Origin: Bdellovibrionales bacterium
GTDB taxonomy: Bacteria > Bdellovibrionota > Bdellovibrionia > Bdellovibrionales > JAUICD01
Reading direction: 5' to 3'
Assembly: GCA_965203275.1 (NCBI GenBank)
Contig: OZ241865.1
Location: 736,001 to 800,000 of the forward strand
DNA length: 64,000 bases
The notes beneath the pieces are model-generated. The model did no database searches. It saw only the letters and a list, made by a program, of their open reading frames with translations, and was not told the origin of the DNA. Within the stretch, counting starts at the first letter, position 1. Each line of letters begins with the position of its first letter. Of the stretch, positions 16,174 to 63,018 are shown one piece after another. The position numbers and the translations under genes were made by a program.

Positions 16174-16494
16174 TTTTCACTCAAAATGAGCGGATTTTTG
16201 AGGCAATGACCATTTTGTCAACGGCGAAAGCCAAAAAGTGTAAGAAAGAACTTTTTCCTTAACATGGAGTAAAAAACGAGGAGATCCTCCCTACTAAAAG
16301 TAAACGAACTTTTGAGGTTGCCAGCATTTAAGAAGGCGAATAGCCTTCGGCTGGCAACCCAAAAGTGACCAGAGGTCAGTTTACTTTTAGTGCAAAAGAC
16401 GGCTGGTTTATTTTTAGTGAGACAAACGCCCAAAAACACACCAGAGGTGTGGCTCATTTTGAGTGAAATGTTAAGGAATGAGGAGATCCTCCTT
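16174..16494. repeat. Modular palindromic repeat cluster 1
   Basis: Starts TTTTCACTCAAAAT directly after the dnaE stop; complete branched hairpin at 16292-16392. Confidence 0.9.
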
Positions 16495-16866
16495 ATGAAA
16501 AAGGTATTAAATGTAGAGAAGAATTAATGACAGGTCAGAATAAACAAGCAAGGCAACTGAGTGTTTCAGAAGCAATGTTAAAGTTAAAAGAAGTCAGAGC
16601 AGTGCCTGTCACATTAAAAGATAAGACCCTGTGGATGAGAACAGATATCACAGGTCATGCAACAGATGTATTTAAAGCAGTCAAAATACCAGCAAAACCC
16701 ATCAAAGCTTAAAAGTAAAAGTAGAATCATCACAATCTTAATTAATCTTAATAGATTGTCCAAAATTCTGCCACAAAAACAAAAACCTAGTGGCACAAAA
16801 TCCCTTTCGACTCATAATCTACTGCTCAACTTTATTTTTGCAGGCTATCAAACTCAGGAACTCAGG
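16495..16866 (+). mobile_element. Remnant of a transposase C-terminus and element end, possibly IS1634-like
   Basis: ORF 16527..16712 (LKEVRAVPV...WMRTDITGHATDVFKAVKI) resembles DDE transposase tails from memory; the segment ends in a duplicated AACTCAGG (16851-16866). Confidence 0.5.
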
Positions 16867-17005
16867 AACCTTGAGCAGACAGGCAATAACCTCTCAATAT
16901 GGCCTGCACAACAAAGGTGACATCATCTGTTTTAAATCTTGGAGAATTTTGAGCATACACTAAATTCCCCCACAGCAAACTTAAAATAAAAATATAAACT
17001 TTCAT
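16862..17005 (-). pseudogene. Short signal-peptide ORF (47 aa), probably truncated by the IS remnant
   Basis: AGGAGG RBS, MKVYIFILSLLWGNLVYA signal; the stop codon falls inside the CCTGAGTT duplication. Confidence 0.5.
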
Positions 17006-17168
17006 GGTTTCCTCCTGCTAGCATTGTTGGTTGTTATTTATCTATATCAATTTTATTTGTTACAAGATATAAATTGTGGCTTGTCAAGTATGAATATTAT
17101 GACTTTGATGTTTTAAACATGAGGCGTTTTTCATTGCATTCTCTCAACTGAATGTTATTTTTTAATCT

Positions 17169-60122: not shown

Positions 60123-61028
60123 ATGAAAGTCCAATCTTCAAATCAAAATAAAGCTTATGCATCACCTCTTAGGGAGTTCTGGTATTTTTTTTCTCAAAAC
60201 AAGGGAGCAGTCGTTGGATTAATATTTATTATCATTTGTACAATAGTGGCTACATTTGCACCTTGGCTTGCACCCTATCCCCCCGATGCTGATGGGATAC
60301 ATCCTTTGTTCTTAGATCATATTAAGCAGTTTCCTGTTTGGCAGGGAGGTAGCTGGGAATTTGTATTAGGAACAGACGATATTGGTCGTGACCTTTTAAG
60401 TCGTCTGATCTATGGTGCAAGAGTTTCTTTAGGTGTAGGTTTTTCAGTTGTATGTTTTTCGGCTACAATAGGTTCTGCTATTGGATTAATTTCTGGTTAT
60501 GCAGGTGGACTTTTAGATAAAATTATTATGAGATGTACTGATATATTGATGTCCTTGCCAAGTATTTTATTAGCTATTGTAGTCGCTGCACTTTTAGGCC
60601 CTAACCTGTGGAATGCTATTTTTGCTGTGAGTATAGTAGCCATACCTGGTTTCATTCGAATTGCAAGAGCTGCTGTTCTTGCAGAAAAGAACAAACAATA
60701 TGTGACAGCTGTAAAGAGTTTTGGAAGTGGTCATTTTCGAGTATTGATTTTAAATATCTTACCTAATTGTGTGGCTCCTTTGATTGTTCAAGCAGCCTTG
60801 AGCTTTAGTGATGGTATTTTAAATGTTGCAGCCCTTGGATTTTTAGGATTAGGAGCTCAGCCTCCTACAGCTGAATGGGGAACCATGTTATCAGATGCTC
60901 GTAAGTTTAATGAAACGGCCCCTTATTTGGTCATACTTCCAGGTCTTTGTATTTTAATTGTTGTTTTAGCTTTTAATCTTTTAGGAGATGGCCTTCGGGA
61001 CACATTTGACCCCAAGCTTAAAAAATAA
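60123..61028 (+). CDS. dppC: Dipeptide ABC transporter permease (DppC-like)
   Basis: LGTDDIGRDLLSRLIYGARVSL, ILPN, LGFLGLGAQPPTAEWG, GDGLRD.FDP. Confidence 0.92.
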   Translation: MKVQSSNQNKAYASPLREFWYFFSQNKGAVVGLIFIIICTIVATFAPWLAPYPPDADGIHPLFLDHIKQFPVWQGGSWEFVLGTDDIGRDLLSRLIYGARVSLGVGFSVVCFSATIGSAIGLISGYAGGLLDKIIMRCTDILMSLPSILLAIVVAALLGPNLWNAIFAVSIVAIPGFIRIARAAVLAEKNKQYVTAVKSFGSGHFRVLILNILPNCVAPLIVQAALSFSDGILNVAALGFLGLGAQPPTAEWGTMLSDARKFNETAPYLVILPGLCILIVVLAFNLLGDGLRDTFDPKLKK

Positions 61029-62011
61029 TGCCTTTACTTGAAGTCGAAAACCTTAGTATTGAATTTGAAACCCTCAGGGGAAGACTGCGAGCTGTTGATG
61101 GTGTAAGCTTTCAGGTTCATCCTTCAGAAACACTTGGCATTGTAGGGGAATCAGGCTGTGGAAAAAGTTTAACAAGCCTTGCGGTTATGGGTTTGCTTTC
61201 TCCTAATGCCATTGTCACAGCAGATAAATTAATGTTTAAGGATATTGATCTGTTGAAAGCCAATCAGTCAGTCTTGCGTAAGATACGTGGCAAACATATT
61301 TCTATGATTTTTCAGGACCCTATGACCAGTTTAAATCCTAGTTTTACAGTGGCTTTTCAGATGGACGAAATTTTAAGAGTACATAAAATGGGCAATAAGG
61401 AGGAACGTAAAAAAAGAATCCTAGAGTTATTGCAATATGTAGGTATATCATCTGCAACTACTTGTATGAAAAGATATCCACATGAACTTTCTGGAGGTAT
61501 GAGTCAACGTGTGATGATTGCTATAGCTATGGCTTGTCAACCTGATCTTTTGATTGCAGATGAACCTACAACCGCTTTAGATGTGACCATGCAAGCACAA
61601 ATATTGGCACTGCTTCAAGAGTTAAAACTAGAAAATCAAATGGGTCTTATGTTGATCACACATGATATTGCAGTGGTGGCAAAGATGGCTGATAGGGTAC
61701 AAGTCATGTATGCTGGACAGGTGATTGAGTCATCTGATACTCAAAATATTATTCATAAGAGCTTACATCCTTACACTGATGGGCTTTTAAAGGCACTGCC
61801 TCATGCAGAGACTTCATCAGGTTATAGGCAGAGGCTTAATAGTATTGAAGGGGTTGTACCAGATCTTGTTCATCGTCCAACAGGGTGTCAATTTCATCCA
61901 AGATGTCAGTTTGCTCAAAGCAAATGCCAACAAGAAGACCCTGTTTGGGAGGAGACACAAAATAATCATTATACAAAGTGTTTTTATCCTCTGCTTTCTG
62001 ATCATAAGTAG
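61028..62011 (+). CDS. dppD: Dipeptide ABC transporter ATP-binding protein (DppD-like)
   Basis: GESGCGKS, FQDPMTSLNP, LSGGMSQR, ADEPTTALD. Confidence 0.92.
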   Translation: MPLLEVENLSIEFETLRGRLRAVDGVSFQVHPSETLGIVGESGCGKSLTSLAVMGLLSPNAIVTADKLMFKDIDLLKANQSVLRKIRGKHISMIFQDPMTSLNPSFTVAFQMDEILRVHKMGNKEERKKRILELLQYVGISSATTCMKRYPHELSGGMSQRVMIAIAMACQPDLLIADEPTTALDVTMQAQILALLQELKLENQMGLMLITHDIAVVAKMADRVQVMYAGQVIESSDTQNIIHKSLHPYTDGLLKALPHAETSSGYRQRLNSIEGVVPDLVHRPTGCQFHPRCQFAQSKCQQEDPVWEETQNNHYTKCFYPLLSDHK

Positions 62012-62018
62012 TAGGCTA

Positions 62019-63018
62019 TCTGGTATCCGGGATCCGGTATCTGGGATCCGGCAACCCGGCATCCCGGGATCCCGGGATCCGGCAACCCGGGATCCGGCAA
62101 CCCGGGATCCGGCAACCCGGCATCAAAAAGCACTTTTTCCTTAACATGGAGTTAAATGAGAAATGGATCCTCATTACTAAAAGTGGTCAGACAGCAAGCT
62201 TCTCTGAAGCTTGCCATGTAACAACACTAGGTGATGACCATTTTATCGACGTGAAATAAACATCTTGTTTCCTTAACATCGTGTAAAGAGACAAGAAGAT
62301 TCTTCCTACTAAAAATAAACGGATTTTTGAGGCAATCAGCCTTTGATCGACGGCGAGAGCCGTCGGGCTGATTGCCCAAAAACAGCCAGAGGCTGGTTTA
62401 TTTTTAGTGAAAGAGATAAGAAGGCGAGAGCCTTCGGCTGGCAACCAGAAAGTGACCAGAGGTCAGACCACTTTTAGTGAAACAGCTAACTCCCTAACCC
62501 CACCCACCGCCCTTCGATTCTGCTTTTTTATCTTATTTATGTATGAGTGGAATGCGGGGTCAGGCTTCCGAAGTCCTCAACCTTCGCTTGCTCTTGGGGA
62601 GCAAGCGGGTCTGCGGAAGATCTTCAGCCTGCCCCCGCCTCCCACTCATAATATTTATTTTTTGAAAGTTACACAGAATCTAAAAAAAATAAAAAAACAA
62701 AAAAAGAACTTTTTCCTTAACATCGTGTTCACCCGGGATCCGGGATCCGGCAACCGGCATCAGTTCCCGGTATGCCAGATTGCCGGATCCCAGATCCCGG
62801 ATCATGGGAGTGAATATAAATATCTTGTTTCCTTAACATGGAGTAAAAAAAACGAAGAGATCCTTACTTACTTAAAGTGAACAAGCTTTTGAGGCGATGA
62901 CCATTTTGTCAAAGGCGAAAGCCTTTGCGGTCATCGCCCAAAAGTGACCAGAGGTCAGTTCACTTTGAGTGAAACAGAGGCTAGTTCAATTTTAGGGAAA
63001 CAGACCACTTTTAGTGAA
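62019..63018. repeat. Modular palindromic repeat cluster 10
   Basis: Longest heptamer run (62019-62124), A hairpins 62307-62410 and 62868-62971, B hairpin ~62485-62712. Confidence 0.92.

Follow-up and report, generated by a model that had tools for sequence, protein, structure and literature searches.

REP, BIME and REPIN sequences are described, in the parts of the sources that concern them, as high-copy, intergenic, lineage-restricted repeats that present a folded polar strand with a bulge (PMC3333891, PMC8266576, PMC3116915, 10.1101/279083), that lie in mosaic clusters with inverted and tandem arrangements and that leave no target duplication. By the same partial accounts, TnpA-REP has low cleavage specificity and can build variable mosaics (PMC3333891), Y1 enzymes need a tetranucleotide guide, a C^T site and a conserved terminal tetranucleotide (PMC8266576), and IS200/IS605 elements have two different end signals, strand polarity and no duplication (10.1101/279083, PMC8266576). 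NIME/dRS3 and REP2 of Neisseria, BOX of Streptococcus, RPE of Rickettsia and CIR of Caulobacter are modular structured intergenic mosaics of 100-200 nt from host-associated lineages with an uncertain mover, and the miniature inverted-repeat transposable elements (MITEs) Correia, RUP and ERIC are non-autonomous, shorter than 200 nt and built of long stems, as far as PMC3184786 treats them. These likenesses return in a repeat that we describe here from a window of 64,000 nucleotides of the genome of a Bdellovibrionales bacterium (contig OZ241865.1, positions 736,001-800,000, forward strand; coordinates below are positions in this window), where an initial annotation had noted a branched stem-loop of about 100 nt, module A.

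The repeat disperses to unrelated sites, has a sharp 3' end and a ragged 5' end, deletes target DNA, shows no target duplication or target motif, and nests within itself. It is very probably a selfish mobile element and behaves as a REP-like selfish repeat, in line with the analogy drawn by the initial annotation. On our best reading it would work most like REP/BIME sequences with TnpA-REP and like IS200/IS605 derivatives, yet it lacks the features by which either group is recognised. It is a new family of a known general kind, and its insertion signature matches no family tested; that it is also a new system, as first proposed, is possible but unproven. We favour, with a probability of about 0.5, the reading that it is a non-autonomous repeat that moves as a folded single strand through an enzyme acting in trans, is resolved loosely on its 5' side and is later reshuffled by recombination. 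Many bacterial intergenic repeats have no known mover, and this one is unusually tractable, since hundreds of alleles define its fold, and 51 empty/filled targets and 62 nested junctions define its insertion signature.

Module A is the core of a longer unit with a conserved three-way fold

We compared the genome of the window (G000) with that of a congener (G001) and with the remaining genomes of a five-genome family set (G002-G004). A full unit is about 145-175 nt long and consists of a purine-rich head, a leader of about 37 nt (CCTTAACAT...), module A, a G and an A-rich tail of 7-8 nt. Module A is only the core and not the whole mobile unit, because a conserved leader stands upstream of it: TTAACAT is found 34-37 nt ahead of module A in 515 of the 627 canonical copies of the genome. 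Leader, head, tail and insertion signature were missing from the earlier description, and the insertion signature is the most informative part. The parts of a representative unit are as follows.

20653-20669, + strand: purine-rich ragged head (8-25 nt, variable 5' boundary), with a T run at its end
20670-20706, + strand: leader, with invariant CC[T/C]TAACAT, a degenerate inverted half-site (TGTTAA/TGTAAA/TGTCAA) and a weak GGATCC palindrome
20707-20807, + strand: module A, a three-way junction
20707-20719 with 20795-20807, + strand: stem P1
20722-20728, + strand: P2a
20729, + strand: bulged A
20730-20740, + strand: P2b
20741-20746, + strand: T-rich bulge
20747-20764, + strand: P3, with a G..A loop
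20765-20782, + strand: P2'
20783-20793, + strand: P4, with an AGA loop
20808-20816, + strand: invariant G and A-rich tail of 7-8 nt, the sharp 3' boundary of the mobile unit

Module A is thus drawn as a P1 of 13 bp, a 2-nt linker, a P2a of 6-7 bp, the bulged A, a P2b of 10-11 bp, a one-sided T-rich bulge of 5-6 nt, the P3 hairpin and then P4, whose loop reads C-AGA-G in 711 of 785 copies. The layout first proposed was right about the bulged A and the T-rich stretch, whereas its 4-nt linker, the extent of its P2 (which is longer) and its internal loop of about 5 nt (an almost one-sided bulge) had to be redrawn, and the GAAAC that it placed after P1' occurs in just 239 of the 627 canonical copies. 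REPs, as the sources characterise them in part, are hairpins of 21-65 nt, in contrast to the longer unit here with its three-way junction and separate leader.

The covarying stems of the initial annotation were borne out by an alignment of 22 of the 24 canonical copies in the window (two exact duplicates were left out). Double-sided changes occur in 25 of 40 consensus pairs, and 97.1% of paired cells can pair, compared to 82.8% in column shuffles (0 of 500 reach the observed value) and 31-47% with slid partners. Single copies fold as DNA with z of about -10 to -12, and as RNA with a median z of -9.4 (60 distinct genome copies). Of the 627 canonical copies, 519 have an entirely Watson-Crick P1, and genome-wide each of eight alleles of this stem is mostly matched by its own partner allele; the congener brings new P1 alleles that still pair (12 or 13 of 13 pairs in 34 of 39 distinct modules). 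The proposed single-strand fold with a polarity is supported, but conservation "in structure rather than sequence" was overstated, as 37 of 105 columns in the window alignment are invariant and mean column identity is 77%. Moreover, each stem has some eight to ten allele classes, reshuffled in part, and these account for the covariation in place of hundreds of independent events; the alleles of different stems are linked yet incompletely so (Cramer's V 0.55-0.73).

The absence of a described family was also upheld: at gathering score Rfam yields three tRNAs only in the whole window, and at E up to 5 in 18200-21300 it yields ten matches far below gathering, none fully matching module A. No description of the element was found in the literature searched, which left subscription papers mostly outside and excluded supplements, where REP family tables could bear on novelty.

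The leader is kept in sequence and not in fold. Its positions 20670-20690 read TTAA-N7-TTAA, a spacing that we take to be like that of a CtrA box, and its right half on the reverse strand varies between TTAACA, TTTACA and TTGACA, resembling a -35 hexamer for which no fitting -10 was found. The leader as a dif site, sigma-70 promoter or terminator is unsupported, the terminator-like matches being P4 inside P1. In the congener, the sequence upstream of the leader consists of a fixed module-C-like end (module C is a passenger repeat listed below), then 6-45 purine-rich nt that differ in every copy, then TTTCC; the purine stretch may represent untemplated or stacked heads. Variants of module A include a long form at 28365-28505 and 62141-62251, with an extra 12-bp hairpin in place of P2a, and congener forms with duplicated P4 arms.

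Insertion leaves a sharp 3' end, a ragged 5' end and a target deletion

Filled and empty paralogous sites were compared within the genome, where 120 outer 3' ends represent 51 distinct targets. Donor-target identity, counted past AGTG, remains at shuffle level from -13 to +3 and then reaches 58, 64 and 80% at +7, +8 and +9, and the unit ends 7-9 nt beyond the G that follows P1. There is no shared motif, target dinucleotide or donor homology across the 51 targets. This profile indicates that the 3' boundary is sharp, that the tail is the donor's, and that no homology or target sequence is required; donor-target microhomology at the 3' side is rejected on the same grounds. The GAAA/GAAC after P1' likewise belongs to the donor and not to the target, which bears on the GAAC/CAAG target of IS91/ISCR. 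IS200/IS605 elements are cleaved at one end a short distance 3' of a hairpin, and the 3' end here is comparable.

The 5' side is ragged. A few inherited head families begin 8-25 nt upstream of the leader, and one of them is joined to older copies at more than 20 positions. Heads as mutated copies of the replaced target were considered and rejected (0.416 vs a null of 0.400, 179 events). No target duplication was seen, direct repeats being no longer than in shuffles at the 72 clusters with 3' ends on both sides. Target DNA is lost instead: of 62 distinct nested junctions, 47 lack 2-65 nt of target (8-15 nt in 23 cases), and the others comprise twelve tandem duplications, two overlaps of 1-3 nt and a single clean join. 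Single units in paralogous genes replace about 10-34 nt (94 nt in one case; two cases overlap by 3-6 nt), and two-ended clusters replace 137-345 nt among the cases listed. Identity between filled and empty paralogs reaches 99-100%, which marks the insertions as recent. By truncating genes and removing DNA in this way, the repeat is a major force on the genome.

The two ends also behave differently at cluster edges (n = 764), where a 3' end faces outward at 406 and a leader start at 74; likewise, among 703 full units, unique DNA lies downstream of 129 and upstream of 8. Older copies are favoured insertion targets. New 3' ends within them have the same orientation in 576 cases and the opposite in 23 (k-mer test), about 89 inverse joins to the leader start being tallied separately from that test, and the joins fall at many positions, concentrated around P4, the bulge and the start of the leader. 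Compared with NIME, BOX, RPE and CIR repeats, which are alike in kind only and by description, what stands out here is the covarying three-way junction, the sharp 3' end and the self-nesting (PMC3184786, in part).

These junctions also bear on REP and IS200/IS605 membership. The repeat shares the REP-type trait of high-copy extragenic palindromes in mosaic clusters. It differs from REPs, as the relevant passages of 10.1101/279083 and PMC8266576 define them, in having no GT[AG]G at the 5' foot of the folding strand, no C^T junction and no Y1 gene, and in deleting its target. In the commonest classes P1 is preceded by 8 nt that resemble TCCTCCCT, and GTAG is found only on the opposite strand, ahead of a weak variable palindrome. 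C^T or C^A joining is absent at the 51 targets, the 5' junction having been mapped for fewer events. REPINs are portrayed in the part of PMC3116915 that deals with their movement as excising inverted doublets, whereas here single units insert with unlike ends. IS200/IS605 elements, again from partial descriptions, differ in that the repeat has no conserved terminal or target tetranucleotide and shows a ragged 5' end, target deletions and variable tails; a bias toward the lagging-strand template is likewise not evident, though the GC skew is weak, and G000 has no TnpA or free-standing TnpB.

The 72 of 382 clusters with 3' ends at both edges, together with intact IS256 and IS1634 genes in the genome, could suggest a DDE-type MITE that moves whole clusters and whose terminal inverted repeats would be the outward-facing 3' ends of module A. 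Alternatively, the bulged base and asymmetric loop are reminiscent of attC and hence of a tyrosine recombinase substrate. An attC site is a folded single strand with an extrahelical base and an asymmetric loop whose pairing is kept across alleles, all of which the element shares; it also has an RYYYAAC...GTTRRRY core, in which an integron integrase makes the crossover at G^TT inside the stem. Here, however, copies are dispersed on both strands and do not occur singly per cassette, the junction lies 7-9 nt outside P1, and no R-box or GTT core, target motif or integron integrase was seen, the genome having two PF00589 genes only. As for MITEs, no terminal inverted repeat surrounds the unit (P1 brackets module A only), single units insert with one ragged end and unlike ends, targets are deleted and not duplicated, and no matching transposase was found among the families compared, IS256 and IS1634, to whose termini the ends are unrelated. 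Both versions are largely refuted, and we consider them very improbable.

In the reading that we favour, in which the mobile repeat spans about 165-175 nt, a trans-acting enzyme would bind the Y-shaped fold, set the 3' end by its distance from the P1 stem and join that end to broken target DNA. Resolution on the 5' side would be loose, through either a variable second cut or annealing with an older copy close by, and this looseness would produce both the nested stacks of 3' remnants and the clusters with outward 3' ends. Recombination between copies would then reshuffle stem alleles and amplify tandem runs along with passengers (module C, heptamers and a four-helix-bundle gene). Strand transfer of single-stranded DNA, as a route in itself, is a tentative choice to which we give a little under an even chance.

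The moving strand would more likely be DNA than RNA

The P3 tetraloops of G000 comprise 340 GNRA, 194 GNYA and 17 others, with a C-G closing pair in nearly all. Since d(cGNNAg) is a DNA loop motif, these loops suit DNA better than the RNA GNRA class, and the AGA triloop of P4 may be a sheared A-A loop of DNA type. On balance the moving strand would more likely be DNA than RNA, although the loop evidence is mixed.

An RNA route would start from read-through transcripts trimmed by 3'-5' exoribonucleases until a few nt remain beyond the P1 stem, which a reverse transcriptase (RT) acting in trans would copy from a chromosomal 3'-OH by target-primed or template-jumping synthesis; the cDNA would anneal to an older copy, and priming on the two sides of a break would give outward 3' ends. 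Stems halt RNase II and PNPase at a distance of 6-9 nt, and such a route would account for the sharp 3' end, the A-rich variable tail, the ragged 5' end and the target deletions. The folding strand is also the would-be template, as stem mismatches are G-T in 122 and A-C in 60 cases, although this excess fixes the strand and not the type of molecule. In the congener, P3 loops are mostly GNRA (25 of 35, with 5 GNYA and 5 others; the closing pair is T-A or T-G in 19), and its genome has three RT matches. Nevertheless, we regard the RNA route as unlikely. PF00078 (RT) finds nothing in G000, yet insertions there are recent; one of the three RT matches of the congener has a unit about 450 nt away, while the other two have none and read like group II intron genes. 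In addition, 1002 of 1303 pieces keep an intact leader start, unlike the outcome of random RT fall-off, GNYA accounts for 194 of 551 tetraloops, and units between co-directional genes show no sense bias (211 sense vs 183 antisense).

Search for a mover enzyme

The partners that the initial annotation had put forward are missing from G000, which is 90% complete by markers: there is no Y1/RAYT and no RT, and the only two tyrosine recombinases (PF00589, Xer-like by eye) lie outside the repeat clusters. PF02486 is also absent from G000. PF01548 (IS110 DEDD) occurs in one of the five genomes, G002, which lacks the element. PF04480 gives one weak match each in G000, G001 and G003, PF01541 matches one open reading frame (ORF) of 612-653 aa per genome, PF07282 falls only inside ORFs of about 1350 aa, and PF00239 is present in all five genomes. 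PF01867 marks four cas1 loci in G000, all in CRISPR-Cas operons (near 243600, 370900, 1993700 and 2270300 of contig C1; by eye type V, I, II and split II/V-like). A scan for HUH motifs returned 45 ORFs, none like a Rep or transposase by eye, and inspection of the 88 ORFs with units on both sides brought out no single-copy candidate. G000 also has intact genes of IS256 (9 copies) and of IS1634; their termini, read by eye, are unrelated to the unit, and other DDE families were not searched by Pfam. At about 16495-16858 of the window, the 3' remnant and right end of an IS1634-like transposase are fused to a leader fragment.

Rpn-family nucleases stand out by position: 35 of 37 loci have a unit within 500 bp, the corresponding figures being 29% for single-copy genes (n = 1283) and 59% for multi-copy genes (n = 175), and several of the loci in G000 are truncated by units. 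RpnA is reported, in the relevant part of PMC5350276, to be a non-specific endonuclease whose products prime a polymerase and may permit template switching. Host repair could then suffice in place of a dedicated enzyme, with Rpn breaks mended by polymerase template switching onto folded single-stranded copies; the primer-making and the lack of sequence specificity of RpnA (same source, in part), together with the lack of target specificity at the 51 targets, would agree with this. We think this rather improbable. Rpn is rejected as a partner in that it is not co-distributed with the repeat: three Rpn loci of G001 have no unit within 1.5 kb, and G003 has 16 PF04754 (Rpn) matches and no element. 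The enrichment possibly reflects selection to inactivate toxic genes, since inactivation of toxic or dispensable genes would yield the same pattern. Furthermore, PF02735 (Ku) has no match in the five genomes, and host repair leaves unexplained why fold and leader are conserved across two species (RecG 79% identical, via a G001-like contig).

The four-helix-bundle gene was likewise rejected as a partner, as the four G004 loci examined have no unit; the gene therefore spreads without module A on contigs that belong to G004 itself. It has 14, 19 and 19 matches in G000, G001 and G004 and none in G002 and G003, and all 14 in G000 adjoin a unit, on its leader side.

Several results weigh against movement as a folded single strand with a trans-acting enzyme. 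No mover emerged, and none that was both co-distributed and adjacent, from the single Pfam families searched in G000 or the five family genomes, the whole proteome not having been scanned against Pfam. PF01797 (Y1/TnpA-REP) has 0 matches in G000, and the one IS200-type PF01797 gene of G001 has no unit within 1.5 kb. PF04986, for the Y2 transposase of IS91/ISCR rolling-circle elements, was blank in the five genomes, but its control was also silent. Targets and junctions showed neither a tetranucleotide guide nor a C^T site, nor any conserved terminal tetranucleotide. The tails, rich in A, vary widely (230 junctions have 112 distinct 7-mers; tail sharing is slightly above column shuffles, 592 vs 442 ± 54 pairs), and this agrees equally well with untemplated addition, exonuclease trimming or cleavage by an enzyme. 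The loops of the congener look more RNA-like, and DNA folding energy is nearly equal on the two strands (-34.9 vs -33.8 kcal/mol). Full units show no clear preference for a replication strand (385 of 735 on one side, p = 0.21), with a GC skew that is weak and may be scrambled. Finally, active movement was not seen in four contig sets covering 41001-61000.

A more far-reaching proposal is that the repeat belongs to a new class of mobile DNA, in which a Y-shaped single strand is transferred one-endedly and independently of sequence, still actively, by an enzyme outside the Y1, IS110, RT and recognised DDE groups or by a co-opted host enzyme. Such an enzyme would gauge one end from the fold, attach it to nearly any sequence and settle the other end through replacement of target DNA or older copies. 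We consider this possible, though doubtful. If the enzyme is new, it would represent a structure-guided, target-promiscuous strand-transfer activity; if host repair is responsible, the repeat would show how 6% of a small genome fills without a transposase.

Genomic load, placement and distribution

G000 contains 1303 pieces, 735 of them full, in 390 clusters, which amount to 5.7% of its 2.57 Mb. No piece lies inside a real ORF of at least 200 aa, the two matches found both being in a single ORF built of the repeat itself. RPEs enter coding frames, which the element here does not.

Units immediately upstream of a gene are oriented toward it in 129 of 149 cases. This bias, the strong conservation of pairing and the several sense units tolerated in a ribosomal protein operon of G001 (three to four between rpsQ and rplN) would suit a host-selected regulatory element or non-coding RNA, such as an mRNA stabiliser, processing site or nucleoid organiser, spread by gene conversion. 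This explanation has little probability in our view, as insertions truncate genes and delete target DNA, about 570 of the 1303 pieces are partial, sites differ between the two species, and the family is absent from the other genera searched. The rpsQ-rplN spacer itself is filled in G001 and empty in G000; within its tandem unit in G001 the 3' end of rpsQ recurs as a diverged copy.

The same alleles recur over 41001-61000 in contigs from other samples and studies, so the repeat family is not an assembly artefact. The four contig sets on this interval break at repeats and give no clean empty allele, which has no bearing on mobility; set X7, labelled sponge metagenome, aligns as short segments that differ by a few per cent.

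The element was detected in 3 of 61 genomes by BLASTN, and a covariance model run on 151 genomes of the order matched 4, counting G000 itself; what it matched in G045 is a plain hairpin and was rejected. In G004, element copies lie on contigs C1, C4 and C11. The rplN of C11 is 98% identical to that of G001 and 79% to the second copy in G004, and the RecG of C1 is 96% identical to that of G001 and 63% to the G004 copy, so that, on the comparison of these two genes, C1 and C11 are mis-binned from a G001-like organism. The element is therefore known from one genus among the 151 genomes of the order, and a mover should be found among proteins common to the two carriers and missing from relatives. 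A pattern scan of species genomes recovered at least 19 loci, at least 17 of them from one Bdellovibrionales bacterium record and 2 without a model match. Scans of metagenome and viral sequences gave 9 and 3 loci, none of which fits the model; these are chance matches.

Clusters and passengers in the window

A profile hidden Markov model built from 512 distinct units finds 45 pieces on both strands of the window, matching the fragments in ten clusters and both orientations first reported. Module A is complete in 28 of them, 22 of which also have the leader, and a pattern search finds 24 canonical copies of 98-104 nt, in keeping with the two dozen complete copies initially counted. The copies placed at 16293 and 18403 were exact, and a third begins at 19674, one nucleotide from where it had been put (19673).

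16177-16467, + strand: cluster 1, an older copy (16177-16232 and 16421-16467) split by a newer full unit (16259-16394), a nested insertion
18369-21196, both strands: cluster 2, ten pieces, module C, heptamer arrays, a truncated four-helix-bundle gene and module D repeats
23664-24249, - strand: cluster 3, three pieces and module C, with outward 3' ends at both edges
28247-28690: cluster 4, three pieces, one of them a long variant with an extra hairpin
38378-39253: cluster 5, including a tandem run of three 147-nt units (38821-39253)
41814-42364, - strand: cluster 6, one full unit, three 3'-truncated or partial units and a heptamer array
45043-45547: cluster 7, surrounding a tRNA gene (45175-45264)
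49180-49588, - strand: cluster 8, three pieces, with an intact four-helix-bundle gene on the leader side
52189-53148: cluster 9, seven pieces, module C and a heptamer array, with outward 3' ends at both edges
62141-62973, + strand: cluster 10, four pieces, module C, heptamer arrays and stacked 3' remnants

Stacked 3' remnants lie at 52423-52549 and 62973-63018. Across the genome, passengers (module C, heptamer arrays and all 14 four-helix-bundle genes) are mostly on the leader side of units.

18512-18738, + strand: module C, a passenger repeat of about 230 nt forming a long bulged hairpin
23962-24183 (- strand), 52582-52804 (+ strand) and 62489-62708 (+ strand): further copies of module C
49660-49965, - strand: four-helix-bundle (PF05635) gene between heptamer arrays 49619-49640 and 50061-50089, a candidate passenger or independent element
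19286-19486, + strand: four-helix-bundle gene whose 3' end is cut off by a unit head
62022-62118, + strand: longest heptamer array, of GGGATCC/GGGATCT/GGCAACC words

Module C has 117 pieces and 39 distinct full copies genome-wide; its central GAAGTCCTC...GCGGAAGATC motif is conserved in the congener, where the stems differ. All eleven heptamer arrays of the window lie within or beside clusters (232 arrays genome-wide), and an array in G000 often opens with the first ~15 nt of the leader. At the four-helix-bundle loci of G000 (49619-50089 and 19122-19486 of the window) both heptamer arms run in the same direction, and one G004 locus has, by eye, inverted arms and no module A. Module D, at 20198-21270, is a dispersed and tandem repeat of about 235 nt with 43 motif matches in the genome, and is repeatedly hit by the element at few positions. 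At 39317-41779 lies a gene for an 820-aa protein whose N terminus has a stretch like a signal sequence and whose C-terminal repeats have a weak helix-turn-helix score; it belongs to a multi-copy family, and all six members of its closest group adjoin units.

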